A DNA stretch of 64,000 bases from assembly GCA_024674815.1 (NCBI GenBank), contig GCA_024674815.1_4104.1, one strand, 5' to 3'. Positions 458 to 14,317 of the stretch are shown here, piece by piece. This DNA comes from a phage. Under the pieces are notes generated by a model that did no database searches, was not told where the DNA came from, and worked only from the letters and a program-made list of their open reading frames with translations. Both the position numbers and the translations under genes were made by a program. Position 1 is the first letter of the stretch; each line of letters begins with the position of its first letter.

Positions 458-481
458 TTTTATTTCTCTCTCTTTGTTAGG

Positions 482-541
482 AGGGGAACCATTCCCCTCG
501 CTTGATGTAAACTATTATACAGTACTAAGATACTTTGTCAA
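482..541 (-). promoter_or_regulatory. PeSL-like cassette: sigma70-type promoter + leader stem-loop
   Basis: minus strand reads TTGACA-16nt-TGTATAAT then hairpin AGGGGAAUGGUUCCCCU before SD/ATG. Confidence 0.6.
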
Positions 542-544
542 TAC

Positions 545-727
545 TTATTTTTTGGAAAGTTTACGCATTAATTCTACGCTTTCTTGTGAACGTTTTGCTA
601 CCTGGCAAGCTGCATGGACAGTAAACATTTTTGTATAGTCTGACGCTTTGCCACCGAACCGAGCGGCACGTTCACGGGCACTTGGAACTAATACTATTTC
701 TTTCTTGCAGATAGTGCACTTAGCCAT
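545..727 (-). CDS. small Cys-containing (zinc-ribbon-like) protein, 60 aa
   Basis: internal ATG downstream of hairpin; track start is GTG inside cassette; CxxC motif. Confidence 0.45.
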   Translation of the reverse strand: MAKCTICKKEIVLVPSARERAARFGGKASDYTKMFTVHAACQVAKRSQESVELMRKLSKK

Positions 728-750
728 TTTTATTTCTCTCTCTTTGTTAG

Positions 751-812
751 GAGGGGAACCGTTTCCCCTCACTCGATGTAAACTATTATACAGTACTAAG
801 ATACTTTGTCAA
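751..812 (-). promoter_or_regulatory. PeSL-like cassette (near-identical copy of 482-541)
   Basis: ~85-bp direct repeat flanking CDS 545-727; TTGACA/TGTATAAT/GC hairpin. Confidence 0.6.
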
Positions 813-815
813 TAC

Positions 816-1091
816 TTAATTATTGTAAATGTCGTGAATAGTGATAAAGTTTTTACGACCGTAAACCTGCAAATCAATATCAATGTAGTGCTTATCAAGT
901 ACATCCTCGACGCTTAACGCGGTGTCGTGAATATCTTCGTAGAATTGAGGATCTACAATCTTGCTTAAGTCATCCGGCGTTAACTCATCGTTAAGCCGTT
1001 GAACCGCCTGGATATCTGCTTCACGTTTCCAGTCTTCCAGGTTAGTAGTCAGTACTTGTTCGATTTCGTTAGCTGTCAGTAGAATCCGCAT
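816..1091 (-). CDS. hypothetical protein (91 aa)
   Basis: ATG ORF, promoter at 1125-1152. Confidence 0.55.
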   Translation of the reverse strand: MRILLTANEIEQVLTTNLEDWKREADIQAVQRLNDELTPDDLSKIVDPQFYEDIHDTALSVEDVLDKHYIDIDLQVYGRKNFITIHDIYNN

Positions 1092-1124
1092 TTTAATGTT
1101 TCCTTATCAGTGGTTGATGTAAGT

Positions 1125-1152
1125 ATTATACTCTTTTACTTTCTATTGTCAA
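1125..1152 (-). promoter_or_regulatory. sigma70-type promoter
   Basis: TTGACA-16-TATAAT on minus strand. Confidence 0.5.
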
Positions 1153-1162
1153 ACTATTTTAT

Positions 1163-1234
1163 CAGGGGAGTTTTTCGTATGTCTTACTCCTGGACTACTT
1201 AACGGGGTTACTTGTTTCGTTCCCCGTCCTGATG
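1163..1234 (-). other. conserved ~70-nt structured leader element (copy 1 of 3)
   Basis: two GC stems; near-identical at 11985-12060, diverged copy ~8825-8885. Confidence 0.4.
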
Positions 1235-1240
1235 TAAAAC

Positions 1241-1268
1241 ATTATACTTTATTCTAAGTACAATGCAA
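1241..1268 (-). promoter_or_regulatory. sigma70-type promoter
   Basis: TTGCAT-16-TATAAT on minus strand. Confidence 0.45.
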
Positions 1269-1365
1269 GTACTTTTTAAAAATAGTTTTCAGTACTAGCC
1301 ACCAGCAAACAATAGATACATTTATGCACCCTGTGGGCTGATTTGTTTCTATGCGTATATAATAG

Positions 1366-1397
1366 CAAAGGGACTGACCGGAGTCAATCCCTTTTTC
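1366..1397 (-). terminator. hairpin terminator (family with UUCG-type loop)
   Basis: GGGAUUGAC-UCCG-GUCAGUCCC, fully paired only in minus transcript (G-U wobble); short T-run. Confidence 0.45.
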
Positions 1398-1405
1398 AAA
1401 TATTT

Positions 1406-1555
1406 TTAAACTTCTTTCGGGTTGCGATAGGTGATAGCGTTCGGGTACATTTGTTTAATGTTATTCCATGCCTGGTTAACATTATAACCACTTGAGCGAA
1501 TCAGTTGGTTACTACCGACACCTTGAAACACTACTTCGAATAAGAATTCTTTCAT
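1406..1555 (-). CDS. small hypothetical protein (49 aa)
   Basis: hand-translated ATG ORF below track threshold; start overlaps stop of upstream ORF. Confidence 0.35.
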   Translation of the reverse strand: MKEFLFEVVFQGVGSNQLIRSSGYNVNQAWNNIKQMYPNAITYRNPKEV

Positions 1556-1725
1556 GCTTTCACCTCGCTATCTGCTTTACCTTTACGCCAGGACATTACT
1601 AATTGTTCGCGTTGCCATAAGTCGAGTGATACAAAAAGTTTTGCGGTATCACTTTTAGGATACTCTCCAGTAGTACCTAACCGATAAAACAGATCTTTCA
1701 GTACTGATAATTCTACTTGAATCAT
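1552..1725 (-). CDS. small hypothetical protein (57 aa)
   Basis: hand-translated; ATGA overlap with downstream ORF. Confidence 0.35.
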   Translation of the reverse strand: MIQVELSVLKDLFYRLGTTGEYPKSDTAKLFVSLDLWQREQLVMSWRKGKADSEVKA

Positions 1726-1831
1726 TTTATTACTCCTGATTGCGTTAATACTTCTACTATTGCATGAATGATCATAAGTACAGCTAAAACAATAATCATC
1801 GGATTCATTTGCATAAGCTGTACTCCTTATA

Positions 1832-2044
1832 TTAATCTTTCAGCCAATGATCTTGAATGAATTTTTCACCGTATCCCTGTTTCATGGATTCTAACAGGCG
1901 TTCGCGGTGAGCGGCGGCATATTGCTCAGTACTATGCGTTACGCCAGGCTGATAACGTGATACCCCATCCGGTCCGATGTATTGTACATCCCACGGTTTA
2001 GCGTTAGTATCAGACCATTTACGAACGATTAGTTGACCTTGCAT
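1832..2044 (-). CDS. hypothetical protein (70 aa)
   Basis: ATG ORF; cassette upstream. Confidence 0.55.
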   Translation of the reverse strand: MQGQLIVRKWSDTNAKPWDVQYIGPDGVSRYQPGVTHSTEQYAAAHRERLLESMKQGYGEKFIQDHWLKD

Positions 2045-2061
2045 TTTTCTTTCCTCTCAGT

Positions 2062-2121
2062 GGGGAGAATCATTTCTCCCCTTCATGTAACTTATTATAC
2101 AGTACTAGATTATCTTGTCAA
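2062..2121 (-). promoter_or_regulatory. PeSL-like cassette
   Basis: TTGACA-16-TATAAT; hairpin GGGGAGAAAUGAUUCUCCCC. Confidence 0.6.
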
Positions 2122-2127
2122 TAGTTT

Positions 2128-2451
2128 TTATTCACCTTGTTTGAATTTAGTTTTCTCCATTGATTCCATGATTGCAACCAATACACCGTGGATCTCGCTT
2201 AACGCGGAATCACTAAAAGCATTAATGAATAGTCGATCATTCTCGCGAATATTTTTAATGTACTTTTCAGCAGTAGTTGCGAATTCATTCAACGGTAGAT
2301 CAAATGCTTTATCCCATGATGGATGGCGTAATTGTAACAGTACTGGATTATCACGATCACCAGGGGAAAACGTACCAGTGATGAAACATACGCCCGGAAT
2401 ACTTTCGAACTGGCAACGGACTTCCTTTGTGATAGTAGTATGAATGTACAT
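2128..2451 (-). CDS. hypothetical protein (107 aa)
   Basis: ATG ORF, 27 nt after upstream gene (co-transcribed). Confidence 0.55.
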   Translation of the reverse strand: MYIHTTITKEVRCQFESIPGVCFITGTFSPGDRDNPVLLQLRHPSWDKAFDLPLNEFATTAEKYIKNIRENDRLFINAFSDSALSEIHGVLVAIMESMEKTKFKQGE

Positions 2452-2478
2452 TTATTGTTATCCTCTATTAAATTAATA

Positions 2479-2673
2479 TTACAGTTTATGAATCAATTCT
2501 TTATCTAAGCGATAGCGTACATTATTAATAGTAACGGCATTGTTTTTAATGCTACGCTGTACAGGTCCACCAGCAATAACAAATGTTGCTTTATTACCCC
2601 GAACAATGATAGCACTTCCAGGATTACCGAAATCATCTTGTACTAAAATACTTGATAAGTTTTCCATTTTCAT
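2479..2673 (-). CDS. hypothetical protein (64 aa)
   Basis: ATG ORF; cassette upstream. Confidence 0.5.
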   Translation of the reverse strand: MKMENLSSILVQDDFGNPGSAIIVRGNKATFVIAGGPVQRSIKNNAVTINNVRYRLDKELIHKL

Positions 2674-2685
2674 TTCCTCTTAGTA

Positions 2686-2742
2686 GGGGAAGATGTTTCC
2701 CCTTGATGTAAGTACTATAACACTACTGAAAACTAAATGCAA
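2686..2742 (-). promoter_or_regulatory. PeSL-like cassette
   Basis: TTGCAT-16-TTATAG, hairpin GGGGAAACAUCUUCCCC. Confidence 0.5.
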
Positions 2743-2745
2743 GTA

Positions 2746-3102
2746 CTATGATAAAATCATGATAGGATATTCACTATCGATCAGTACCTCGAATCCGAAA
2801 CCTTCGTACCATTCTTTAAGATTAAAGGCGTTATCTTCTCCCGTATCGCATTCTAAAATGATACAATCTGAATCATCGGCGGCATCAATAAAGGCATTCA
2901 TTAATTCGTTACCTTCACCATTGCCCCGACTATCAGGATCAACATAAAGAGAATCAATAAACGCTACACGGTCATAATCAAGATCCGGTGCAATGATTCC
3001 ACGTTTCACAAACCAGTACTGCAATTGTGCTACTTTGCCCTGTACTTGATAGCCAGTGATCTCGCCATTGTCAGTAGTACGCGTGATATGTTGTATTCCC
3101 AT
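2746..3102 (-). CDS. GNAT-like acetyltransferase fold protein (118 aa)
   Basis: motif VDPDSRGNGEGNELM resembles GNAT motif A. Confidence 0.45.
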   Translation of the reverse strand: MGIQHITRTTDNGEITGYQVQGKVAQLQYWFVKRGIIAPDLDYDRVAFIDSLYVDPDSRGNGEGNELMNAFIDAADDSDCIILECDTGEDNAFNLKEWYEGFGFEVLIDSEYPIMILS

Positions 3103-3131
3103 GATTACTATCCTCAGTTAAGATATAAAAC

Positions 3132-3159
3132 ATTATACACTATCTTTCAGTACTGTCAA
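3132..3159 (-). promoter_or_regulatory. sigma70-type promoter
   Basis: TTGACA-16-TATAAT. Confidence 0.5.
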
Positions 3160-3165
3160 TACTTT

Positions 3166-3423
3166 TTATCTCATAGATCTATGCCAACAATTACGCGGAT
3201 CTCTTTTAAAAGTACTATCATGATCCTCCTGGCAAGTAATACAATACATGCACCCTATAACGGCCTGGCGTCGATTCTCAGGGATTTTATCGCCGCAGTC
3301 GAGGCAATGTACTAGTGATTCTCTTTGTGCGTTAATTTGCTTTCTAGCGTGGTTAACGGCTGCCTGAATCACTGCATGAATCTCGTCTTGTTCGGCCCCG
3401 TCTTTCGCGTATCCTACTGCCAT
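3166..3423 (-). CDS. TraR/DksA-family C4 zinc-finger protein (85 aa)
   Basis: CLDCG...x17...CMYCITCQ (CxxC-x17-CxxC). Confidence 0.6.
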   Translation of the reverse strand: MAVGYAKDGAEQDEIHAVIQAAVNHARKQINAQRESLVHCLDCGDKIPENRRQAVIGCMYCITCQEDHDSTFKRDPRNCWHRSMR

Positions 3424-3584
3424 TATTTTAACCTCATTATAAAAATACTATAGTACTGTAATGCTACAATAATACTACTAGTGCTAATCTTATTCAAACC
3501 ATATGATACTACATATCCACCAGCATTACCACGGATAGTAACTCCTTTGTACTGTCTATATAAATTCAACTGCGTATATTGCCT

Positions 3585-3657
3585 TTGATCAAGAATTGAT
3601 CAGAATTATACGCCTTATGCTAAATTGATCCAGTACTTTTTTGATCATTTATTGATC
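3585..3657. repeat. cluster of five TTGATC motifs (GATC-rich tract)
   Basis: 5 copies of TTGATC in 73 bp in an ORF-free leader. Confidence 0.5.
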
Positions 3658-3719
3658 GATATTATATAGTTACATTTGTGCACCCTATGGGTTAGTGACG
3701 TTCTCGTCTTGATGTAAGT

Positions 3720-3748
3720 ATTATGCCAGTACTGGATAATATTGTCAA
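3720..3748 (-). promoter_or_regulatory. sigma70-type promoter followed by conserved leader motif
   Basis: TTGACA-17-CATAAT; motif CACTAACCCAUAGGGUGC ~25 nt downstream. Confidence 0.5.
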
Positions 3749-3752
3749 TAGA

Positions 3753-3950
3753 TTATTTTAATTTTTTTCTGTCATTGATTAATGCTTTCAGTACTATACT
3801 AATAACTTGCAATGATTCATCAATGACAATGAAATTATTCTCTTTCATTAGATGATAGTTACCATTGATTGTATATTCTAACGAGTACTGTTTACGTTTA
3901 ATTTTTGATAATGTTTCTATTTGTTTTTGTACTGATTTCATGCTAATCAT
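3753..3950 (-). CDS. hypothetical protein (65 aa)
   Basis: track start is TTG; first ATG at 3950 used. Confidence 0.45.
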   Translation of the reverse strand: MISMKSVQKQIETLSKIKRKQYSLEYTINGNYHLMKENNFIVIDESLQVISIVLKALINDRKKLK

Positions 3951-4055
3951 TGTCAAACGTCCTGTAACGCATTCTAACGAGATAAACGGTTTAGTACTGG
4001 CATTGTATAGGGTAAATGATTAAAGCCCACCAGCGTTGACCAGTGGGCTATAATC

Positions 4056-4199
4056 TTACATCTTGCGGATAATCTTAACAGTATCTTTCACCGATTTACC
4101 GTCTTGCTGACATTGCTCGATCATCGCGTATTGTTCTGCGGTCAGATCCTCGCCAGTTTTTGCCAGTACTGCGTCGATGAATGAATCCAGTGCGATCAT
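4056..4199 (-). CDS. small hypothetical protein (47 aa)
   Basis: hand-translated ATG ORF; TTGACA-17-TATAAT promoter upstream. Confidence 0.35.
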   Translation of the reverse strand: MIALDSFIDAVLAKTGEDLTAEQYAMIEQCQQDGKSVKDTVKIIRKM

Positions 4200-4289
4200 T
4201 TTATTTCTCTCTTAGGTTAAGTTAACTACTGTTTATAAAACTTATTATACAGTACTATCAAACTATGTCAATAGTACTGGTAATATATT

Positions 4290-4469
4290 TTAGCGGTAGT
4301 CGTCGTATGCTTTATTCACCTGGCGAATATAACTTTCAAAGGCTTCGTCTACCGTTTCATACTCCCGAACATAATCACCATATGAAACTACATACATACC
4401 TTTTTGATCTTCAAACGTCATGATGATAGAATCCAGACCAACGATTTCAGTTTTTGCGATGATAGCCAT
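4290..4469 (-). CDS. small hypothetical protein (59 aa)
   Basis: hand-translated ATG ORF with upstream promoter. Confidence 0.4.
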   Translation of the reverse strand: MAIIAKTEIVGLDSIIMTFEDQKGMYVVSYGDYVREYETVDEAFESYIRQVNKAYDDYR

Positions 4470-4551
4470 TTTTAATTCCTTAATAGTGTAGTTGATAAAA
4501 GTTATTATGTCAGTACTATCAAACTATGTCAATAGTACTGTGATAATATTT

Positions 4552-4764
4552 TTAGTTAATGATAGTCAGTGTAAAATTGTAATCACCGCAGCGATATAGC
4601 ACGTTATTCCCAAATGTTCCAACTAATCGCACATCACACAAAACGCCGGTTTTTTCTTTTACTTCCTTGATACTTGTAACTCCTGTAATATCTTTATTAA
4701 AGTATTCATGATCTGAAAATAAAACTTGTTTTGCATTTTTTAATTTCGACCGGATATTAGCCAT
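4552..4764 (-). CDS. hypothetical protein (70 aa)
   Basis: ATG ORF; cassette upstream. Confidence 0.5.
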   Translation of the reverse strand: MANIRSKLKNAKQVLFSDHEYFNKDITGVTSIKEVKEKTGVLCDVRLVGTFGNNVLYRCGDYNFTLTIIN

Positions 4765-4784
4765 TTTGTTTTCTCTCTGTTAGT

Positions 4785-4844
4785 GGGGAGAATCATTTCT
4801 CCCCTTGATGTAAACTATTATACAGTACTATAATCTATTGTCAA
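4785..4844 (-). promoter_or_regulatory. PeSL-like cassette
   Basis: TTGACA-16-TATAAT; hairpin GGGGAGAAAUGAUUCUCCCC. Confidence 0.6.
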
Positions 4845-4859
4845 ACTATTTTTTTAATA

Positions 4860-5201
4860 TTATTCAAAATCTTCCGGTACTGACTGATAATCATCTTCAC
4901 CGTATGCACTTTCTAACCGCTCGCCAGTGTGATCATCAGTTAGTGAGTCATCCTCATAGTTCACGTCTACGCCAGTGATGTAAAACTGGCTATCGTCTGG
5001 ATCATTGAAATTAATTTTCTGTATGTTTACAATAACTGTATTGATACCCAGGACACTGCCATCAGCCGTTACAAAGTACTGATATTTTTCACAACCGCCT
5101 GAATTGAAACCGTAATTAATTTCGGCCCGACCATCATTTAAACGCAGTGCCTGGGCGATGATTTCATTTTCAAAGTTAGATTGAGCAATTGAGATAGTCA
5201 T
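4860..5201 (-). CDS. acidic hypothetical protein (113 aa)
   Basis: ATG ORF, D/E-rich. Confidence 0.55.
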   Translation of the reverse strand: MTISIAQSNFENEIIAQALRLNDGRAEINYGFNSGGCEKYQYFVTADGSVLGINTVIVNIQKINFNDPDDSQFYITGVDVNYEDDSLTDDHTGERLESAYGEDDYQSVPEDFE

Positions 5202-5221
5202 GATTTGTTTCCTTATTACCA

Positions 5222-5280
5222 GGGGAAACCGTTTCCCCTTTCGATGTAAAACATTATACGCTTATCAGGAAGTAATGCAA
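5222..5280 (-). promoter_or_regulatory. PeSL-like cassette
   Basis: TTGCAT-15-TATAAT; hairpin GGGGAAACGGUUUCCCC. Confidence 0.55.
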
Positions 5281-5283
5281 GTA

Positions 5284-5751
5284 CTATTTCACGTTAATTT
5301 CAAAGTACTGCTCTTTGATGTTTTCCTGTTGGTAAATCTCGTTTAATGCTTTAAGATCTAAAACCTGTTTACCTGCTGCCTGAATATACTTTTTAAGAGT
5401 CGCTAACAGCTTCTCAGGCGTGTTTGTAGTCTTACGTGTTGGGATCTTATCGTGCCCCATAGCGTAGTACTGCTTACGTGCTATAGTACTGATAACACTG
5501 CGGTACGGTTCCATGATCAGCTTGTCTGTGTATTCGTCGCTATCCCCAAACTTCATACCGTGGATCGCAAAGGTCATCATCATGCGGTCGTTATCGCGGA
5601 TATTGTGGGGGCAGTCGGCAAGCTCGCGAGTCAGTGACATAGTGATCCCCACGTCGCCACCCAGCGGTAAAGGTCGGGCGATAAAGAAACCGTTAGGGAA
5701 TACTTTCAGGAAGTTTTCTTGAACTGCTGCGACGAATTCGATGCTATTCAT
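5284..5751 (-). CDS. hypothetical protein (155 aa)
   Basis: ATG ORF. Confidence 0.6.
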   Translation of the reverse strand: MNSIEFVAAVQENFLKVFPNGFFIARPLPLGGDVGITMSLTRELADCPHNIRDNDRMMMTFAIHGMKFGDSDEYTDKLIMEPYRSVISTIARKQYYAMGHDKIPTRKTTNTPEKLLATLKKYIQAAGKQVLDLKALNEIYQQENIKEQYFEINVK

Positions 5752-5771
5752 AATTCATTTCCTTAATTAGT

Positions 5772-5831
5772 GGGGGAAGTTGTTTCCCCTCTCGATGTAA
5801 AACATTATACGCTTATTGAGATAGTTTGCAA
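5772..5831 (-). promoter_or_regulatory. PeSL-like cassette
   Basis: TTGCAA-16-TATAAT; hairpin. Confidence 0.55.
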
Positions 5832-5944
5832 GTACTTTCTACAAATACTTTTAAAATAGTTTTCAGTACTCAAACATTATACAATAGATACACTCCTGCA
5901 CCCTGTGGGCTAGTGAGCTATCTCTCAATGAATATATAATAGCA

Positions 5945-5975
5945 AACTGGCTGACCGAAGTCAACCACTTTTTCA
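5945..5975 (-). terminator. terminator hairpin with UUCG loop, TTGACT -35 embedded
   Basis: GGUUGAC-UUCG-GUCAGCC in minus transcript; TATTAT 17 nt downstream. Confidence 0.5.
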
Positions 5976-6110
5976 TTTATTTTTAGCTTTTAGAATCGCC
6001 GCCTTTCGCGTCATGCCTTGCTTGATGTACTCCTTTACTTTCGCTTTTTTAGCGTTTACCTTGTCTGCTTTCGTTTTAGGAGTACTGTAAATTATACCGT
6101 TAGGATTCAT
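5973..6110 (-). CDS. small basic protein (45 aa)
   Basis: hand-translated ATG ORF, Lys-rich. Confidence 0.3.
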   Translation of the reverse strand: MNPNGIIYSTPKTKADKVNAKKAKVKEYIKQGMTRKAAILKAKNK

Positions 6111-6196
6111 TTAAATCACCATAAAGAATAGATAGGTTACTAACAACGCCGCGATCAATGCACCGACCAGGGCCGAACTATAGTAAGCTAATGATT

Positions 6197-6349
6197 TCAT
6201 TTTTTAGCCTGAAAGTAATGTTTAATTTGAGCGGCGGTCAGTGCACAATTACGCAGGAAGTTTTCTGTATAACTTTTGCGAGTACTGAAAGAGAATTGAC
6301 CTTTGCCGTTACCGATAGTAACATCAAACCGAGCGTTGTATTGTTTCAT
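6197..6349 (-). CDS. small hypothetical protein (50 aa)
   Basis: ATG with AGGAGA SD; track start is an AUG inside the leader hairpin. Confidence 0.4.
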   Translation of the reverse strand: MKQYNARFDVTIGNGKGQFSFSTRKSYTENFLRNCALTAAQIKHYFQAKK

Positions 6350-6367
6350 TTTGATTCTCCTGTTATT

Positions 6368-6427
6368 GGGGAGAATCATTTCTCCCCTTCATGTAAACTA
6401 TTATACAGTACTAAAAACTAATTGCAA
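6368..6427 (-). promoter_or_regulatory. PeSL-like cassette
   Basis: TTGCAA-16-TATAAT; hairpin. Confidence 0.55.
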
Positions 6428-6430
6428 GTA

Positions 6431-6577
6431 TTATTTTTTAGATTTACGTAAACTTTCTACCATCTCAGGAGTAAGCCCCAGCGGGTAGGAAACCACTTCA
6501 TCCACAAAACGCAAAGGGAATACCCCATCTAAAGTTGAACGTGCTTTCTTATTAGTACTCTTTTTTGATGCTTTCAT
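6431..6577 (-). CDS. small hypothetical protein (48 aa)
   Basis: hand-translated ATG ORF; cassette upstream. Confidence 0.4.
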   Translation of the reverse strand: MKASKKSTNKKARSTLDGVFPLRFVDEVVSYPLGLTPEMVESLRKSKK

Positions 6578-6646
6578 TTCATATTCCTTAATTAGTGGGG
6601 AGAACTATTTCTCCACTTCATGTAAACTATTATACAGTACTAAAAA

Positions 6647-6856
6647 CTAATTGCAAGTATTATTTTCTAAAAAATGTTTGTATGCTGAATCAACAACTCT
6701 TTCGATAACATACGCTAACGGCACGTATCCAACTACATGACTACAATAAAAAGGACTACGATTAGAATCATCGTATGCAAATACTTTTTCAGGATCTGCA
6801 TCAATCACATACATATTAACCTTTAAGATGTCGATCTTATCCTGTACAGTAAGCAT
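6647..6856 (-). CDS. hypothetical protein (69 aa)
   Basis: ATG ORF. Confidence 0.5.
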   Translation of the reverse strand: MLTVQDKIDILKVNMYVIDADPEKVFAYDDSNRSPFYCSHVVGYVPLAYVIERVVDSAYKHFLENNTCN

Positions 6857-6861
6857 ATTAA

Positions 6862-7134
6862 TTAACCTTTTAAGTACTGGCTTAAGTAGTCTTTTTGATC
6901 TTCGGTGATTGCAGTCATCTTCCCTAGTACTGGATTAATGATATAATCCCCTGTAACGTCCAGTACAGCATTCTCAGGCTGTTTAACGGCAGGGGTAGCC
7001 ATAGCCATCGCCTGGACTTGTTCGACGCTGTAACGCTCATAAAGGCGGCATTCTTCCGGTGTTAACATAGCATCAATACGTTTCATTGGTTTAATGATGC
7101 TTTCAACTTCATTTAGTACTTGATTAACGTTCAT
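6862..7134 (-). CDS. hypothetical protein (90 aa)
   Basis: ATG ORF. Confidence 0.55.
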   Translation of the reverse strand: MNVNQVLNEVESIIKPMKRIDAMLTPEECRLYERYSVEQVQAMAMATPAVKQPENAVLDVTGDYIINPVLGKMTAITEDQKDYLSQYLKG

Positions 7135-7185
7135 GGTATAATCCCCAATATAAGCGGCCTAAATCGACCACTAACGATGATTTGA

Positions 7186-7455
7186 TCAATAGGTGTATGG
7201 TTGACGCTCAAACAATGATTGCACGTTGTACGCCCCGCTAATGGGCTTAGCTGGCAAATCAATTTTATATTGTTCACGCTTAAAGATAATAAAACGGCAA
7301 TTGTTTTTAACATCAAAATTGATTGAACGTTCCAGGAGTTTACCATCGTGCACAAATACAAGATAACCGCTTGCTACTTGTTTTGTAGTACTGGTTGCAA
7401 CCATAGACCGCCGAACATGTGTACCTGCATCGATTAAAGTACTGATATTTTTCAT
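7186..7455 (-). CDS. hypothetical protein (89 aa)
   Basis: ATG ORF; TTGACA-17-CATAAT promoter at ~7487-7515. Confidence 0.5.
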   Translation of the reverse strand: MKNISTLIDAGTHVRRSMVATSTTKQVASGYLVFVHDGKLLERSINFDVKNNCRFIIFKREQYKIDLPAKPISGAYNVQSLFERQPYTY

Positions 7456-7534
7456 TTTAGTTTCCTTAGTTGTCTTGATAAAATCTATTATGCCAGTACT
7501 ATCAAACTATGTCAATAGTACTGTGATAATATTT

Positions 7535-7678
7535 TTACTTACTTTTTGCTTTCTTGATTGCTTCCACCTGGTCGGCCCATTCTTTACCCCATACTTGTAA
7601 ATTATAATGGTACTGGCAAAGAGCAACGCCCCGCTTTAAACCCGTAATAGATTTCTGACCACATTGACAAGTTTTCAT
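7535..7678 (-). CDS. small Cys-rich protein (47 aa)
   Basis: hand-translated; C-x-C ... C-x2-H pattern. Confidence 0.4.
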   Translation of the reverse strand: MKTCQCGQKSITGLKRGVALCQYHYNLQVWGKEWADQVEAIKKAKSK

Positions 7679-7695
7679 ATTAGTTTCCTTGTAGT

Positions 7696-7756
7696 GGGGA
7701 GAACCATTTTCTCCCCTTGATGTAATGTATTATACTTTATTCGATTTACTTTGCAA
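7696..7756 (-). promoter_or_regulatory. PeSL-like cassette
   Basis: TTGCAA-16-TATAAT; hairpin GGGGAGAAAAUGGUUCUCCCC. Confidence 0.55.
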
Positions 7757-7765
7757 GTACTTTTT

Positions 7766-7993
7766 TTAATTTAATTCATCAAGGCAAAGGATACGCTCAA
7801 CGCCCAAATCAGTTAAACTAATCGACGGCACTTGATAGGTTTCAATGTATGCTACACTTGCCCACTGACCGAACTCATTAACGGCCCAGGTATTCATTGC
7901 ATTTTGCAATTCCGCACCTTCCTTGTTGGTAATGACTGCAACTACTTGTTCGTTGCCAGTAGTACCAGATACGCGAGTAATGATAATAGCCAT
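7766..7993 (-). CDS. hypothetical protein (75 aa)
   Basis: internal ATG downstream of cassette hairpin. Confidence 0.5.
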   Translation of the reverse strand: MAIIITRVSGTTGNEQVVAVITNKEGAELQNAMNTWAVNEFGQWASVAYIETYQVPSISLTDLGVERILCLDELN

Positions 7994-8230
7994 TGTTTTG
8001 ATTCCTTTGATTTGGAAGGAGAACCGTTTCCCCCTCTCGATGTAAAACATTATACGCTAATCTCTTAATCGTGCAAGTACTTTTTATTACTTTTTGCAAA
8101 ATACTTTAAACGCTCTCAATCGCGTTCTTACAGCCTTAACGCCACCAGCTAGGGCAATGCATCAGATAATCAGTTTAATGCGTTAGAATCGTTTCTAGGC
8201 GGTGCTGGTGGCATGGTAAACTATAAACAC

Positions 8231-8256
8231 AAAAAAGCCCACCGTTTAAGGTGGGC
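8231..8256 (-). terminator. intrinsic terminator
   Basis: GCCCACC-uuaaac-GGUGGGC then U6 in minus transcript. Confidence 0.6.
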
Positions 8257-8278
8257 TAGTGATTCAATACTTTAATTG

Positions 8279-8761
8279 TTATGCTTCAACTTTGCGATGA
8301 GCTTCGATCCATTCCTCGCGAGTCATACCGCTTTCTTTGATAGCGTCCAGTACTACCGCAATGCAGTTACCGCGTACAGGAATCAAATGTTCTTCACCGT
8401 TATCAAGTACTACAGTAACACGTTCTTGAATCCATTTTTTAGGTTTAGATTCCGGCTTATCTTCACCGTACTTAACCGCCAGGGCTTTATGTGCCATTTC
8501 AACAACCACTTCCAGATCCAATCCAGACACCGCCGCCTGGATACTTTCAATTGTTGCTTGCAGTTCGGCTTCACGGGCTTTTTTCTGTTCTTCCAGTTCT
8601 GCTACCTTTTTGGCTTGTAATTCTTTCGCTTCACTGTAAGCAATGTTAAAATTGTTGCGTACAGCTTTCATGGTATCGTTATCCAGGTCAGCCAGCAATT
8701 CAGCAGCAATAACAGTATCGTTTGAAATCAGTGCTTTCAGGAATGATTTTACATTAGCCAT
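8279..8761 (-). CDS. hypothetical coiled-coil protein (160 aa)
   Basis: ATG with GAGGA SD; track start is TTG. Confidence 0.6.
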   Translation of the reverse strand: MANVKSFLKALISNDTVIAAELLADLDNDTMKAVRNNFNIAYSEAKELQAKKVAELEEQKKAREAELQATIESIQAAVSGLDLEVVVEMAHKALAVKYGEDKPESKPKKWIQERVTVVLDNGEEHLIPVRGNCIAVVLDAIKESGMTREEWIEAHRKVEA

Positions 8762-8956
8762 TTTATAAATCCTCAATTAAAGTTTAGTTTACGTTTATTA
8801 GTGTATCAAAGTTTTATCGACGTGTCCAGTTTTTCGTTCGACTTACTGGCGGTCTACTTAGTGCTCCCCGTCTTGATGTAATACATTCTACGCCTTTTTG
8901 TGGTAATGTCAACTACTTTTTTAAAACTATTTTTAAAGTATGCAGTACTACAAAAC

Positions 8957-8982
8957 AAAAAAGCCCACTGTTTAAGGTGGGC
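8957..8982 (-). terminator. intrinsic terminator (copy of 8231-8256)
   Basis: same hairpin + U-run. Confidence 0.6.
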
Positions 8983-9000
8983 TAGTGATTCAGTACTATA

Positions 9001-9300
9001 TTATAAACAGTTAATTACTCCGGTGTGCGTTACTTTCTCAGTATCCATAACCGTGACCGATCCACGCTTAGTACTTGCATCATAATAAATTGTTGTGCTA
9101 CCGTTTTCGTCTTCTTCATGGAACGGCCCGTTTTTAAATGCTTCTGGCTGGATCTCTAAATCCTTTAAAACAATCTCGCCTGTACTTTCATTGGTCATCG
9201 CTACCGTGCACTGAATGAATTTTTCACTACTTACATCTAACGACGCATTAACAGCGAAAGAGGAAACAGATAAAGCCAGGGCGATGATTGCAATTTTCAT
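9001..9300 (-). CDS. secreted/periplasmic small protein (99 aa)
   Basis: N-terminal signal-peptide-like MKIAIIALALSVSSFA. Confidence 0.6.
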   Translation of the reverse strand: MKIAIIALALSVSSFAVNASLDVSSEKFIQCTVAMTNESTGEIVLKDLEIQPEAFKNGPFHEEDENGSTTIYYDASTKRGSVTVMDTEKVTHTGVINCL

Positions 9301-9320
9301 TTGATTATCCTTAGTTACCA

Positions 9321-9379
9321 GGGGAAACCGTTTCCCCTTGCGATGTAAAATATTATACAGTACTAAAAACTAATTGCAA
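9321..9379 (-). promoter_or_regulatory. PeSL-like cassette
   Basis: TTGCAA-16-TATAAT; hairpin. Confidence 0.55.
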
Positions 9380-9384
9380 GTACT

Positions 9385-9621
9385 TTATGATTTTTTATAA
9401 AACATTTCGGCAGTGATATTTTTACCCGTTGGTTGTACTTTATCCAGAATTTTTTGATGCCCTGGCCGTCCAAATGAATATGATCCGTAAACCGTAAACC
9501 AGTAGTTACCCTCAGTGTTTACATGTACAGCACAATAGGGAACGCCCCGCGATTCATCACCAATAAAGTGTGATACCGTTCCCGTTACATTAGCAGACGT
9601 TGATTTGATTTGTTCAAGCAT
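9385..9621 (-). CDS. hypothetical protein (78 aa)
   Basis: ATG ORF; cassette 9643-9694. Confidence 0.5.
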   Translation of the reverse strand: MLEQIKSTSANVTGTVSHFIGDESRGVPYCAVHVNTEGNYWFTVYGSYSFGRPGHQKILDKVQPTGKNITAEMFYKKS

Positions 9622-9728
9622 TTTCTTATTCCTTAGTTACCAGGGGAACCGCTCCCCTATGCAAAACATTATACGCGTTTAAAAACTATTAGCAAGTATT
9701 TTAATAAAAAGTATTTGAAAAATAGTTG

Positions 9729-9757
9729 TTGACAAGTGCATCCAGTACTGGCATAAT
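9729..9757 (+). promoter_or_regulatory. plus-strand sigma70-type promoter
   Basis: TTGACA-17-CATAAT on plus strand, no ORF downstream. Confidence 0.5.
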
Positions 9758-9763
9758 TACTAC

Positions 9764-9868
9764 ATCAAGACGAAACAGTCACTAACCCACCGGGTGCCGA
9801 GATCCGTCTATTAAATGATTCAGTACTGAAAAAGTAACGGGGAGTTATTATCTCCCCGCGTTGTTATT
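9764..9868 (+). ncRNA. candidate ~100-nt small RNA
   Basis: promoter 9729-9757, conserved CACUAACCCACCGGGUGC motif, hairpin+U-run terminator 9838-9870. Confidence 0.3.
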
Positions 9869-10085
9869 TGGTAAGGTATAAACAGAAGTCACCTTTATTT
9901 GCTACGCCGCCAGTGTAACGCGATGAATAGTTAGAAATATCTTGTACTTCTGCTATTACCAGTGTATCATCATTCATTTCGTCGCAGAAGCAAACGGCTG
10001 GATCTTTTACGCCGATATTGTCTGCATGTTCCCGCATAGATTTAACCAGTGCTTCCAGTTGAGAAAGAGTAGTGATATTAGCCAT
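9864..10085 (-). CDS. hypothetical protein (73 aa)
   Basis: ATG with GAGGA SD; cassette 10105-10163. Confidence 0.5.
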   Translation of the reverse strand: MANITTLSQLEALVKSMREHADNIGVKDPAVCFCDEMNDDTLVIAEVQDISNYSSRYTGGVANKGDFCLYLTK

Positions 10086-10169
10086 TTTATTTTCCTCATT
10101 ACCAGGGAGAACCATTTCTCCCCTTGATGTAAACTATTATACAGTACTAAAAACTAATTGCAAGTACTT

Positions 10170-10358
10170 TTAATTAAATTCCATAAAATCATTTTCAACG
10201 TGCACAACAATCTGATTATTTTTAAAGGACGCAGAAAACTCTATACAATCATAAACCGCTTTTTCTGTTACCAGACTATGAGCACCAATCGGATTAATTG
10301 GGGATTGAATTGTTTCAATCTCGTTACCTTGTTCATTAACGATTAAAATATTAAACAT
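10170..10358 (-). CDS. hypothetical protein (62 aa)
   Basis: ATG ORF. Confidence 0.45.
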   Translation of the reverse strand: MFNILIVNEQGNEIETIQSPINPIGAHSLVTEKAVYDCIEFSASFKNNQIVVHVENDFMEFN

Positions 10359-10397
10359 TGCCGTTACTCCTGGATAGTGTTAACTCGATATAAAGTA

Positions 10398-10580
10398 TTA
10401 TACGCCTTTATTGCTTAGTGTCCAGTGATCACGCATCATACGCCCCGCACGATCCCAGCTAGTAGGCATGGGTATGCCTTGCAATTCGTTAGGGGAGATC
10501 TCGACCTCGATCCCTACATCAATAACAGTCATTCCAGCTTTCGCAGCTTGCTCGCGGATAACCTCAGATAATGTTGTCAT
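10398..10580 (-). CDS. hypothetical protein (60 aa)
   Basis: ATG ORF. Confidence 0.45.
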   Translation of the reverse strand: MTTLSEVIREQAAKAGMTVIDVGIEVEISPNELQGIPMPTSWDRAGRMMRDHWTLSNKGV

Positions 10581-10654
10581 GATTAAAGCTCCTGGATAGT
10601 GTTAACTCGATATAAAGTATTATACAGTACTGAAAACTAATTGCAAGTACTTTT

Positions 10655-10915
10655 TCAATATTGTTTGTCGTTGTCTTCCTCGATGAATTGACCGACGAAA
10701 TGATCTACTTTCGCTTTGAGGCTTTTATAATCTTCTTCTACTTCCTTTAAACGTTCCTGGTAGTATTCCAGGGCTTGAATATACGCCGCCTCAGCAGTTT
10801 TTGCACGCATAGCTAAATTCATTCCACGCGTTTCATCAAATAGCCAATAACCATCGGTGCAATGACTGATAGATAATGATTTACTTAGTACTGTATAGGC
10901 AATTACTTTACTCAT
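10655..10915 (-). CDS. hypothetical protein (86 aa)
   Basis: ATG ORF. Confidence 0.5.
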   Translation of the reverse strand: MSKVIAYTVLSKSLSISHCTDGYWLFDETRGMNLAMRAKTAEAAYIQALEYYQERLKEVEEDYKSLKAKVDHFVGQFIEEDNDKQY

Positions 10916-10972
10916 TAGATAACCCTCAGTAAAGGCGGGAACTATTACCCGCCATTATCTCAGTACTGAATA

Positions 10973-11212
10973 TTACATTCCAACCATTGCAGCACGGATC
11001 GCAGTAGTGCTATACTTAAAGCCGTCCGGCGTTGTAGTAGTACCGTTGGCTTTTAATCTGCGGTACATACATTCCGCAGCAATATCTTTAGTTCTACTTT
11101 GTGCGATGCAACTTTGAGCAAGCCGATACAATGACTCACCGTTATTAATCCAAAGGCTTACATTCCAATGAGTTTTGTTTTTGTGTCCGTTGTAAGTTTT
11201 AGTACTAGCCAT
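10973..11212 (-). CDS. hypothetical protein, paralog A of 13014-13253 (79 aa)
   Basis: shared GHKNKTHWNVSLWINN and TPDGFKYSTTAIRAAMVGM termini. Confidence 0.55.
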   Translation of the reverse strand: MASTKTYNGHKNKTHWNVSLWINNGESLYRLAQSCIAQSRTKDIAAECMYRRLKANGTTTTPDGFKYSTTAIRAAMVGM

Positions 11213-11230
11213 TTTTAAATCCTCGTTTGA

Positions 11231-11290
11231 GCGGGGAACCACTCCCCGCCTCGATATAAAGTATTATACGCTTTTAAACTTAGTTTGCAA
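11231..11290 (-). promoter_or_regulatory. PeSL-like cassette
   Basis: TTGCAA-16-TATAAT; hairpin GCGGGGAGUGGUUCCCCGC. Confidence 0.55.
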
Positions 11291-11302
11291 GTACTTTTTA
11301 AA

Positions 11303-11914
11303 TTAATATTCGATTGATTCCACTACTCCATCAATAACATTGAATTGATATTCGTTACCCTCAATCAGTGCTGTAATGTTTTCAGTAGTGAATTGATCCT
11401 CATATGCATTCTCTAAATCACGGTACAACTTGCGGGATAATTCACGAATAGTTTCAGTGAGTAGTTCCTCAAGCTCATTAACTAACGTTTCTTGTTTTGC
11501 GGTTAAATCAGTGTAAGCCGATTCAATGTACCCGCTTACAGTATTCTCATGCGAGTAGTGGGAGTGCGAACGCTTTACACTCATCGCCAAATCATCTTCA
11601 TTCAGCAAGTGACGGATTGAGCGATACTTAGTTAATGCTCTTACCTTGCGTAAAAACTTCACTGCGTCAACGTGGTCAGTACTGATTGATGCACCGTCAC
11701 CCTGGGACCAAAAGCCACTGAATCGTAAATCAGCGTCAGTAATGCCATATTCCGGTAGTACTGTTTCTTTATAGTATTCAATTTCACTTTCAGAAAAATA
11801 ATCATCGTTTAAGTTTTTTTCACGTTCCCGAACCAGTTCGATAGCTGACGTTTGTTGTTCTGCGTTCAATTCAGAAAAAGCCATAACATAAGTAGTAGTA
11901 GTGATAGTTTTCAT
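11303..11914 (-). CDS. acidic hypothetical protein (203 aa)
   Basis: ATG ORF, D/E-rich. Confidence 0.6.
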   Translation of the reverse strand: MKTITTTTYVMAFSELNAEQQTSAIELVREREKNLNDDYFSESEIEYYKETVLPEYGITDADLRFSGFWSQGDGASISTDHVDAVKFLRKVRALTKYRSIRHLLNEDDLAMSVKRSHSHYSHENTVSGYIESAYTDLTAKQETLVNELEELLTETIRELSRKLYRDLENAYEDQFTTENITALIEGNEYQFNVIDGVVESIEY

Positions 11915-11984
11915 TTTGTAACCCTCATTCAGTAGTTGATGTAAGTATTATACGCTTTTAAAAACAATTGTCAAACTATTTTAT

Positions 11985-12060
11985 CAGGGGAGTTTTTCGT
12001 GTGCCTTACTCCTGGGCTACTTAATGGGGAGTTACTTATTTCGTTCCCCGTCCTGATGTA
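11985..12060 (-). other. conserved structured leader element (copy 3)
   Basis: near-identical to 1163-1234. Confidence 0.4.
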
Positions 12061-12139
12061 AAACATTATACGCCTTTAAACATAGTTTGCAAGTACTTTT
12101 TAAAAATAGTTTTCTGTACTGAATAGTAAAAAAAAAGTA

Positions 12140-12168
12140 TTGACAGCATTATCAAGTACTGGCATAAT
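12140..12168 (+). promoter_or_regulatory. plus-strand sigma70-type promoter
   Basis: TTGACA-17-CATAAT; conserved motif downstream. Confidence 0.5.
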
Positions 12169-12283
12169 ATACCCCATGACAACAGCTAACCCACCGGGTG
12201 CACAATTGTAACTGTAATAAACTACTTTTTCTATAGATACACTCCCGCACCCTATGGGCTACGGCTTATCTGCCAATGAATAC

Positions 12284-12312
12284 ATTATGCCAGTACTGAC
12301 AAAATAAGTCAA
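12284..12312 (-). promoter_or_regulatory. minus-strand promoter convergent with 12140-12168
   Basis: TTGACT-17-CATAAT; conserved motif downstream. Confidence 0.5.
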
Positions 12313-12342
12313 TACCGGCAATTGTAAAGATTTGTAAACTGC

Positions 12343-12573
12343 TTATACTGCAATCGCGTCCAGGCTGTAATAATAATAAGTGCCGTATTGGTGTACTTTA
12401 TTACCTTTTATTTCAGTACTGAATGAATCCGAACGGTTTGCATATGATGTTAATTTAAAGTACTTTGATTTGCTGATACGTTGCCATACACCACAGATCC
12501 GCTGTAAGTAAGTAGTTTTATTCGTGGTAGTATCTTTTACGGTTTTAACTTCAGTCATATACATATTAGTCAT
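12343..12573 (-). CDS. hypothetical protein (76 aa)
   Basis: ATG ORF; cassette 12595-12653. Confidence 0.5.
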   Translation of the reverse strand: MTNMYMTEVKTVKDTTTNKTTYLQRICGVWQRISKSKYFKLTSYANRSDSFSTEIKGNKVHQYGTYYYYSLDAIAV

Positions 12574-12660
12574 TTTTATTACTCCAGGTTATAGGCGGGA
12601 AGAGTTCCCGCTCTCGATGTAAAACATTATACGCCTTTAAACATAGTTTGCAAGTACTTT

Positions 12661-12927
12661 TTATTCAAGTACTGCAATCTTTTTAGTACGGTACACGGTC
12701 ACGCGGTTGCCCTTTCGGTCGAGCTTTATTTCTACCACTCGACGCGATACACTATCGGGACTTTTTAAGGCCGCTAACCAGTACTGTAATGATCTGGCGG
12801 TACTACGCTTTACAATGGCCCAACGTTTACCACGTTCCGATTGTACGCCCATATCTTTAAACGTTGCCCCGTCCTGGCGAGCGGCGATCCGAGCTTGTTC
12901 ACGCGTCGCAAAATACTTAATATTCAT
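12661..12927 (-). CDS. basic hypothetical protein (88 aa)
   Basis: internal ATG; track start is GTG in promoter. Confidence 0.45.
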   Translation of the reverse strand: MNIKYFATREQARIAARQDGATFKDMGVQSERGKRWAIVKRSTARSLQYWLAALKSPDSVSRRVVEIKLDRKGNRVTVYRTKKIAVLE

Positions 12928-13013
12928 GCTGTTGCCCTTATCGTTGGTGTATGAATAAAACACTATTATAAAGTACTATCGCAAAAAAATGATAGTACTT
13001 TAAATAAATTCTA

Positions 13014-14099: not shown

Positions 14100-14103
14100 T
14101 ACT

Positions 14104-14315: not shown

Positions 14316-14317
14316 AG

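Follow-up and report, generated by a model that had tools for sequence, protein, structure and literature searches.

The put RNAs of coliphage HK022 are about 70 nt long, lie just downstream of early sigma70 promoters and act without any protein factor (PMC9378689). Of the two, putL is found at +3 and putR about 270 nt downstream of its promoter (PMC9378689). Here we describe a folded RNA element which occurs three times on the minus strand of a 64,000 nucleotide stretch of phage DNA (GenBank assembly GCA_024674815.1, contig GCA_024674815.1_4104.1; this whole stretch is called the window below). The element resembles putL and putR in its length of ~70 nt, in the early sigma70 promoter just upstream, in belonging to a coliphage and in being present in more than one copy per genome. 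No dedicated phage protein is required by put, nor would one be by the element were it to act in the same way. The folds differ, however, put being two adjacent long stem-loops with a short triplex whereas the element is a predicted pseudoknot with a terminal helix, and HK022 contains nothing that matches the element in sequence or structure, the best score there for a covariance model of the element core being 10.9 bits.

A second comparison is with the promoter-early stem-loop (PeSL) cassettes of T4-type phages, reportedly described by Arbiol et al. in 2010 (Genome Biol Evol), whose stem-loops are said to be transcription terminators. The region of the window that holds the element shares with them repeated modules of a strong sigma70-like early promoter and a stem-loop among small non-essential early genes, with a modular shuffling that is probably driven by such modules. 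Compared with PeSL cassettes as they are said to be defined, the hairpins in the window lie downstream of the promoter, in the 5' leader, and have no U-runs. The fold of the element is also far more elaborate, with invariant unpaired nucleotides conserved across phage families. Thirdly, H-type pseudoknots with an A-rich third loop are found in the preQ1-I and SAM-II aptamers and in the leader of T4 gene 32. The element is similar to these in size, in its two short stems, 1-nt first loop and A-rich last loop, and in its location in a 5' leader, but it has no sequence similarity to them, gives no Rfam match, and has neither an expression platform nor an autoregulated downstream gene.

A first reading made from the letters of the window, referred to as the sequence-only reading, had described the three copies as lying between tandem promoters and had suggested a leader RNA, an attenuator or a small RNA. 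The analysis below indicates that the element is a structured phage leader or early non-coding RNA which is widespread in enterobacterial phages and has a homologue between the A1 and A2 promoters of phage T7.

Fold and covariation of the element

Covariance analysis, put forward in the sequence-only reading as a check, was clearly positive. Unaided RNAfold returned the same architecture for 12 of 13 diverse sequences, namely a helix joining the ends of the element (the closing helix), an optional first hairpin (H1), an unpaired junction and a 5-bp hairpin (H2) with a 16-nt loop. A structure-guided alignment, padded with N so that MAFFT would preserve it, contained 16 and later 26 sequences. 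In the 26 sequences standard pairs occupy 92.6% of cells; displacing the 3' partners by 1-3 columns lowers this to 25-41%. For the jumbo phages, the columns of the closing helix and H1 were positioned manually to follow the structure, which makes the pairing percentages of these two helices too high. The H2 and pseudoknot columns were set by sequence conservation. Changes on both sides were seen at 14 of the 17 pairs, and none of 500 shuffles matched the observed percentage paired, the number of both-sided cell changes or the covariation score.

H2 is paired in 97.6% of cells, with exchange between CG and GC at two positions and between AU and UA at one; IMG/VR sequences supply further variants, GCUUG/CAAGC and a U-G wobble. 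Four of the six pairs of H1 change on both sides across lineages, and the hairpin is absent from copy B of the window, from phages K64-1, Hallingskeid and LIMEzero, and from T7-like phages. In the T7-like phages, the 44 nt before the core and the 14 nt after it were searched without bias for the longest helix that they could form with each other. The closing helix came out at a constant position, with six different sequences (GUCAA/UUGAC, GUCAUC/GAUGAC, GUCGGU/ACCGAC, GUCAC/GUGAC, GUCAGA/UCUGAC and GAUUAG/CUAAUC).

The junction, UAAGUAG-N-C, and the H2 loop, UAAG-N'-C, are joined by a 3-bp pseudoknot, which was found in columns not aligned for pairing and is paired in 98.7% of cells. Junction position 8 is complementary to loop position 5 in 25 of the 26 sequences (AU in 12, UA in 8 and CG in 5). 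This middle pair has the highest mutual information of all column pairs, 1.35 bits, and the tertiary pair passes through AU, UA and CG in at least six independent switches. It differs even among the copies in the window, being U-A in copy A, A-U in copy B and C-G in copy C. The neighbouring pair is CG in 24 sequences and UA in 2 (RaK2 and KP13-7), and the remaining pair is an invariant G-C.

The family core consists of the junction followed by the 5-bp hairpin with a 16-17-nt loop of the form UAAG-N'-C..ACGAA(A/C)A. From these pairings the core is predicted to be an H-type pseudoknot with a 1-nt first loop, a UAA second loop and an A-rich third loop (..ACGAAAAA). The stems vary and it is the unpaired junction and loop that are conserved, with ~20 unpaired nucleotides that do not change between unrelated phage families. 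The closing helix, the pseudoknot, the conservation in the unpaired parts and the very wide spread, including T7, go beyond the sequence-only reading. There is very little doubt that this is a real structured RNA family.

The T7-like phages (L024-L032, L038-L092) also have an upstream hairpin, CCGG-N6-CCGG, ~5-20 nt before the junction. This hairpin covaries (CCAG/CUGG, CCAC/GUGG, CCUGG/CCAGG), and the closing helix has its 5' strand in the hairpin loop.

Copies of the element in the window

Positions 1-14000 of the window are ~94% identical to Escherichia jumbo myoviruses of the 121Q/PBECO4/G17 group (megablast), and on this similarity the window is assigned to a jumbo coliphage of the 121Q/PBECO4 type. 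When a covariance model of the 36-nt core was used to search the whole 64-kb window with filters off, exactly three matches were obtained (1166-1201, 8825-8860 and 11988-12023), scoring 51-55 bits (E about 1e-13), with the next best at 11.5 bits. A 20-mer of the element was found twice at no more than 3 mismatches, the chance expectation being 0.00. The three minus-strand copies are where the sequence-only reading had located them, and alignment agrees with its description of two near-identical copies (A and C) and a diverged one (B, which lacks H1). The two GC-rich stems it had noticed are also real (ACGGGG/CCCCGU and GGAG/CUCC), and to these is added the third helix joining the ends, AUCAGG/CCUGAU in copies A and C and GACG/CGUC in copy B. 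Folding of copy A with RNAfold gave -21 kcal/mol and z = -3.4; the z values for copies C and B were -1.95 and 0.1. The parts of each copy are as follows.

1161-1235, minus strand: copy A, ~75 nt, RNA ACAUCAGG...CCUGAU; core match 1166-1201, 54.6 bits
1228-1233 with 1161-1166, minus strand: closing helix of copy A, AUCAGG with CCUGAU, from the fold; covaries across the family
1202-1227, minus strand: optional hairpin H1 of copy A, ACGGGG, 14-nt loop, CCCCGU, from the fold
1192-1201, minus strand: junction of copy A, UAAGUAGUCC; A-G-U-A-G invariant in the family
1167-1191, minus strand: hairpin H2 of copy A, (A)GGAG stem, 16-nt loop UAAGACAUACGAAAAA (1171-1186), CUCC
1195-1193 with 1183-1181, minus strand: pseudoknot of copy A, junction G1195-U1194-C1193 with loop G1183-A1182-C1181, from covariation
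8816-8879, minus strand: copy B, ~64 nt, without H1; core match 8825-8860, 51.1 bits
8869-8877 with 8816-8822, minus strand: closing helix of copy B, (AUC)AA-GACG with CGUC-GAU
8851-8860, minus strand: junction of copy B
8825-8850, minus strand: hairpin H2 of copy B
8854-8852 with 8842-8840, minus strand: pseudoknot of copy B, G8854-A8853-C8852 with G8842-U8841-C8840
11983-12059, minus strand: copy C, ~77 nt; core match 11988-12023, 52.5 bits
12052-12057 with 11983-11988, minus strand: closing helix of copy C
12024-12051, minus strand: hairpin H1 of copy C
12014-12023, minus strand: junction of copy C
11989-12013, minus strand: hairpin H2 of copy C
12017-12015 with 12005-12003, minus strand: pseudoknot of copy C, G12017-C12016-C12015 with G12005-G12004-C12003

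Promoters and genes around the copies

Each copy begins 2-6 nt past the predicted start of a sigma70 promoter. The promoter-element-promoter-gene layout of the sequence-only reading holds for all the upstream promoters and for the downstream promoters of copies A and C, but the second promoter of copy B is weak (9/12). Only 8 nt separate copies A and C from their perfect downstream promoters. The upstream promoter of copy A was missed by the promoter scan and identified by eye; it belongs to the 20-copy early-promoter repeat family D1 and its predicted start is near A1235. This layout together with the positive covariation supports the view that a structured RNA element lies in a 5' leader between tandem promoters.

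1241-1268, minus strand: upstream promoter of copy A, -35 TTGCAT (1263-1268), 16-nt spacer, -10 TATAAT (1241-1246), by eye
1125-1152, minus strand: downstream promoter of copy A, TTGACA-16-TATAAT, 12/12, promoter scan
816-1091, minus strand: gene after copy A, 91 amino acids, phrog_14947, function unknown
1367-1394, minus strand: terminator-like hairpin directly upstream of the copy A promoters
8885-8912, minus strand: upstream promoter of copy B, TTGACA-16-TAGAAT, 11/12, promoter scan
8781-8809, minus strand: weak promoter-like site after copy B, TTGATA-17-TAAACT, 9/12, promoter scan
8279-8764, minus strand: gene after copy B, 161 amino acids, phrog_27871, function unknown
8257 to 8236, minus strand: terminator after the copy B gene
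8962-8983, minus strand: terminator-like hairpin directly upstream of the copy B promoter
12065-12092, minus strand: upstream promoter of copy C, TTGCAA-16-TATAAT, promoter scan
11947-11974, minus strand: downstream promoter of copy C, TTGACA-16-TATAAT, 12/12, promoter scan
11303-11914, minus strand: gene after copy C, 203 amino acids, phrog_5162, function unknown

Given that copies A and B stand directly behind terminators, each of them opens a transcription unit. A scan found no terminator-like site between the upstream promoter and the start codon of any of the three copies. The genes behind the copies belong to three unrelated PHROGs and the genes behind the element in other phages differ again, thus the element is independent of the gene downstream of it.

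The copies are part of a larger array. Small minus-strand genes are densely packed across the first 15 kb of the window, and the promoter scan found a near-consensus sigma70 promoter for nearly every one. Region 1-15000 contains 20 early-promoter copies on the minus strand (repeat families D1, D3 and D7), many of which lead into ACATCRAG, the start region, with a GC hairpin within the 5' leader. Some 20 promoter cassettes can be traced over positions 1-15100 of this strand, for example at 461-558, 2041-2138, 4764-4861, 6347-6444 and 10083-10180. One such GC hairpin is GGGGAGAAAUGAUUCUCCCC, and these units were likened to the shuffling PeSL cassettes of the T4-type phages.

Distribution of the element

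A blastn search with copy A returned 45 phage records, including 121Q-type jumbo phages and the 137-147-kb Justusliebigvirus and Vequintavirinae phages. Phages muut, EmilieFrey, A7_1 and A73 have the same promoter-element-promoter layout with different genes behind it. A degenerate pattern revealed a very diverged copy on a 366-kb metagenomic contig (L011), and a search started from this contig brought in Salmonella phage Munch with its relatives, Klebsiella phages K64-1, RaK2 and KP13-7, Erwinia phage Hallingskeid and Pantoea phage LIMEzero. LIMEzero is T7-like and its core lies between two annotated host promoters. This core in turn matches ~65 T7-like phages at ~500-640 nt from the left end, in records starting at the genome end, and the corresponding T7 segment matches 486 phage records, which puts the T7-like genomes with the element at about 490.

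The core model gave 40-52 bits for T7, T3, K1F, GA2A, Erwinia L1, Cronobacter Dev-CD-23823 (Melnykvirinae), Aeromonas PZL-Ah152, Klebsiella Kpp-9 (Drulisvirus) and Hafnia yong1; T7 and the 9 other T7-like phages scored were outside the seed of the model. A pattern scan of IMG/VR gave 58 loci, mostly in genomes of 38-44 kb, a few of which are chance matches. Loci L012-L014, L035-L037, L039, L051 and L079 matched the search patterns without the hairpin or the promoter context and were discarded as chance matches. Phages GAP32 and CBB were also removed from the family, as their blast match was to the shared promoter only and a different RNA motif lies downstream. Two pattern scans of 185,579 bacterial species representatives yielded one real match, on a 2.7-kb contig of a metagenome-assembled genome. 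This contig looks like a fragment of a T7-like phage and the other bacterial matches, which have no hairpin, are due to chance; an origin in the host was therefore rejected.

All phages found to carry the element have their early genes transcribed by the polymerase of the host, which belongs to Enterobacterales or Aeromonas. The phage families concerned are unrelated, and what they have in common is enterobacterial hosts and early transcription by the host polymerase. The element is often in the terminal repeats or at the leading end of the genome, and jumbo genomes have several copies. All instances are in 5' leaders. In the window copies and in the relatives examined, the element falls inside the opening 100 nt of RNA made from an early promoter of host type, and another promoter lies downstream.

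No Rfam 15 family, tRNA-like RNAs, known ribozymes, C4/CI antisense RNAs and 6S included, was found in the window at gathering thresholds. Around copy A only irrelevant sub-threshold matches appeared at E<=10, and T7, GA2A, LIMEzero, Munch and K64-1 gave nothing at E<=1. ARAGORN detected 0 tRNAs or tmRNAs in the window. Papers on CBB and PA5oct describe RpoD-like early promoters and the motif of the element is not among their descriptions; nor is the element described in the literature on the T7 leader RNA and on 121Q/PBECO4 transcription. Judged by these searches, the family is a large one that had not previously been annotated.

Two members show partial additional strings. In LIMEzero (L016), positions 897-930 just downstream of the element carry a partial extra copy of the UAAGUAG/CAGUAAG strings, UAAGUAGUUCAGCAGUA, to which the core model gives 12 bits. 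In K64-1 (L017), a hairpin AAUCCA-GUAAGCA-UGGAUU at ~1680-1700, after the second promoter, contains a partial extra CAGUAAG string.

The homologue in phage T7

T7 has one of the most studied of all genomes and its A1 region is a standard transcription template, and the 50 nt between A1 and A2 are unrecorded as a conserved RNA in the literature searched. The segment is not described there as an RNA element, and its sequence appears as a transcription template or as a target for CRISPR interference. The T7 element, the best-known member of the family, occupies nt 540-592 of NC_001604, inside the A1 transcript, and ends at the A2 -35 sequence TTGACA. Nt 550-586 are ATAAGTAGACA-GCCTG-ATAAGTCGCACGAAAAA-CAGGT, and the core model scores nt 551-587 at 41.8 bits. 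The junction UAAGUAGACA, the 5-bp hairpin GCCUG/CAGGU with the loop AUAAGUCGCACGAAAAA, the pseudoknot of the triplet GAC with GUC and the closing helix GUCAA/UUGAC are all present, as are a strong host promoter upstream and the next promoter directly downstream. The same RNA family is found at the counterpart of the A1-to-A2 interval in T3, K1F, phiYeO3-12, phiA1122 and related phages. For the T7 homologue it is established that the element is transcribed, from +43 to +95 relative to A1, the start of which is annotated at nt 498 in NC_001604.

The T7-like versions differ from those of the jumbo phages in several respects. They start ~43 nt into the transcript rather than at +3, often have one extra A in the loop and are without H1, and the 5' strand of their closing helix sits in the loop of the covarying upstream hairpin. 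The -35 sequence of A2 doubles as the 3' strand of this helix in T7 and T3. The early operon of T7 is expressed from A2 and A3 as well as from A1, but the intact element is present in A1 transcripts only. Further downstream, both T7 and GA2A have a boxA sequence, CGCTCTTTAACAA. RNase III, according to what is reported of the work of Dunn and Studier, cuts at R0.3 and detaches the T7 leader from the mRNA.

The next interval of T7 (L024), between A2 and A3, has at nt 645-715 an 8-bp closing helix GUCAACCG/CGGUUGAC and a remnant CACAUAAGGUGAAACAAAACGG, and is given no score by the core model. It looks like a decayed duplicate of the A1-to-A2 element.

Proposed role of the element

It is highly probable that the element functions at the RNA level. 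Since compensatory changes alter its stems and ~20 unpaired nucleotides are kept constant, the RNA probably presents these nucleotides to a conserved host partner. The explanation that we favour overall, though tentatively, is that the element is an abundant immediate-early RNA which would bind a conserved partner in the host. Each copy is a self-contained cassette, in which a strong predicted sigma70 early promoter leads at once into a folded RNA domain of 64-77 nt without a terminator. It stands at the head of an immediate-early unit, ahead of the promoter and gene that come next. The RNA would be made in very large amounts within the first minute of infection and would offer its conserved unpaired nucleotides to a protein or a small ligand. 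Free or as part of a leader, it might serve as a decoy, sponge or recruiter in host takeover or counter-defence, and the gene behind it would not be under its control.

Binding of a host partner in trans is a possibility that we put forward with some reserve. Action in trans rather than in cis is suggested by the restriction of the intact element to A1 transcripts in T7, where A2 and A3 transcripts express the same genes, by the several copies per jumbo genome, which are often inside terminal repeats, and by the reported separation of the T7 leader from its mRNA by RNase III. It is also suggested by the related jumbo phage PA5oct, which has two abundant non-coding RNAs in its terminal repeat (PMC7318152). 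A more specific version, in which the element would be a high-copy RNA aptamer capturing a host molecule in the first seconds of infection as an RNA-only device for takeover or counter-defence, is doubtful. Candidate targets would then be S1, Hfq, a nuclease or a signalling ligand such as an immune second messenger, and the device would have been shared by horizontal transfer among T7-like podoviruses, rV5-like myoviruses and RaK2-like jumbo phages.

Several points weigh against the interpretation of the element as an abundant RNA binding a host partner. The location of all instances in 5' leaders fits a role in cis equally well. Copy B, with its weak second promoter, is effectively the mRNA leader itself. 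A small RNA had been among the suggestions of the sequence-only reading, and the window copies do have a promoter of their own. They have no terminator or other 3'-end signal, though a 3' end could arise by processing, and the element may be a free small RNA or a leader domain. Transcription of the copies in the window is predicted from their promoters. The hand placement of alignment columns noted above also counts here, as does the strand. The alignment contains 12 G-U and 11 A-C cells, hence wobble pairs do not fix the strand and our first idea that they would settle it was dropped; the sense strand was assigned from the orientation of promoters and genes and from the experimentally known start of T7 A1. 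Finally, with one strand of the closing helix inside the loop of a covarying hairpin, the T7-like fold must be either bistable or doubly pseudoknotted, and two competing helices point towards switch-like behaviour.

Action in cis could take the form of an RNA polymerase modifier like put, with the nascent pseudoknot docking near the RNA exit channel. The modified polymerase would resist pausing and termination, so that transcripts from the first promoter would pass downstream terminators at which those from later promoters would stop. The anatomy is analogous, as the element begins at +3 in jumbo phages and in T7 at about +43; copies A and B follow terminators and open units, and there is a terminator behind the copy B gene at 8257 to 8236. 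The host range of Enterobacterales and Aeromonas would also suit a partner as conserved as RNA polymerase. We nevertheless regard this explanation as unlikely. A closed pseudoknot is not the pair of side-by-side long stem-loops of put, and the core model gives no match in HK022; T7 A2 and A3 transcripts express the early operon without an intact element; T7 and GA2A carry a boxA as well; and read-through is not obviously needed where nearly every gene in this region of the window has its own promoter.

Two mutually exclusive helices that both covary, as the CCGG hairpin and the closing helix do in T7-like phages, would be expected of a riboswitch-like or bistable leader. In such a leader the pseudoknot core would be an aptamer for a host metabolite or signal, and the ligand would switch the fold so as to alter access of Rho, cleavage by RNase or translation, the second promoter remaining unregulated. 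The closing helix, the pseudoknot with its A-rich third loop, the ~20 invariant unpaired nucleotides and the variable peripheral hairpin are likewise suggestive. However, no conserved expression platform and no terminator follow the element, the distance to the first ribosome-binding site varies from ~60 to >300 nt, as does the sequence, and there is always a DNA promoter behind the element. The jumbo-phage versions have no competing helix, and no Rfam riboswitch matched even at E<=10. A leader of this kind is accordingly an improbable explanation.

The element might instead be a 5' structure protecting against 5'-end-dependent decay, or a processing signal and possibly a new self-cleaving ribozyme. 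Protection would suit the jumbo phages, where the closing helix begins 2-6 nt from the predicted 5' end. In this region of the window a simple GC hairpin occupies the same place after all the other early promoters, so that the element looks like an elaborated version of it. The element of T7-like phages begins only after ~43 nt of transcript, and RNase III reportedly removes the leader, hence it would not protect the 5' end of the mRNA there. A plain hairpin would in any case suffice, without invariant loops or a pseudoknot. Small pseudoknotted ribozymes are common in phages, which favours processing, but no known class of ribozyme matches in Rfam. We consider a role in stability or processing to be quite improbable.

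An attenuator, as also suggested by the sequence-only reading, a relic of recombining cassettes or a protein-binding site in the DNA can be given very little credence: in none of the copies is there a terminator-like hairpin and U-run on the way from the upstream promoter to the gene, the element being followed by AAAAUAGUUUGACA with no U-tract directly behind a stem, and, although the region is built of promoter cassettes able to recombine, unequal exchange between which would automatically give the promoter-element-promoter layout, and although in T7 and T3, on our own reading, the 3' strand of the closing helix is the A2 -35 and the loop A-run lies at the place of an UP element, the compensatory stem changes and the covarying tertiary pair indicate selection on a folded single strand rather than on a duplex half-site or a relic, and the conserved loop and the next -35 may overlap or be up to ~40 nt apart, a variation that speaks against a DNA site upstream of the promoter.

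Some narrower candidates were also rejected. The UP-element reading of the loop A-run suits T7 A2 and not the variable spacing elsewhere. A small peptide is not encoded, as the sense strand lacks an AUG. The only strings resembling open reading frames, which start with AUA on the sense strand or make up a 7-codon ATG frame opposite copy A, are not shared by the copies. A nut- or rrn-type site was dismissed because no boxA lies beside the window copies. Motifs like those for CsrA or Hfq or of the sarcin-ricin type, and resemblances to the tRNA-Tyr anticodon loop, the 16S decoding strand and ToxI, were dropped as insignificant or untestable.

A pseudoknot supported by covariation is thus common to hundreds of T7-like phages and, via mobile promoter-RNA cassettes, to unrelated 145-kb and 350-kb myoviruses. 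If the element binds a host factor or modifies the polymerase, it would be a protein-free device of broad spread for early takeover or counter-defence, and if it is an aptamer, T7 would always have carried an unrecognised functional RNA between A1 and A2. Even if neutral to phage growth, it would constitute a new Rfam-grade family and could be used to mark immediate-early transcription units in unannotated jumbo-phage genomes. Point and compensatory mutants of T7 are easy to build, so the element is a cheap and directly testable target.

Other repeats in the window

A second repeated motif, GCACCCNNTGGGC, has 8 copies in the window against 0.17 expected.

1326-1338, 3680-3692, 5898-5910 and 12247-12259, plus strand: matches to the second motif
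9785-9797, 12189-12201, 14127-14139 and 14343-14355, minus strand: matches to the second motif

As RNA it reads (A/G)NCCCACNGGGUGC..AUUGUAUC, 3' of an adjoining extended -10 promoter. It is also found at ~1255-1290 in locus L018 and at ~10060-10135 in L022 and L023, is kept in Munch, GAP32 and CBB, and has no Rfam entry. It looks like another family of promoter-plus-RNA cassettes. Just upstream of copy C, convergent promoters at 12140-12168 (plus strand) and 12312-12284 (minus strand) enclose two opposed copies of this motif. The interval 12140-12312 folds as a long hairpin (-28.7 kcal/mol, z = -4.1) and could be a bidirectional terminator or a sense/antisense RNA pair.

Periodic repeats of 8 nt at 14535-14670 (TCTAGCCG, TTTAGCCG, TCCAGCCA) have the appearance of iterons. 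Twelve tandem paralogous genes, ~1.2 kb apart and all starting MLPFGRM(I/V)KYGN, occupy 20570-33600, and several of them have their own TATAAT promoter and a GCCAGTACTTGATACTGGC hairpin before the gene. Four direct repeats of ~175 nt each, spaced ~200 nt and 79-100% identical, lie at 39047-39827. A conserved hairpin with T-rich tails, GGCTGACCGAAGTCAACC, is present in nine copies, at 38677-51843 and 5931-5973, and looks like a standardised terminator family.

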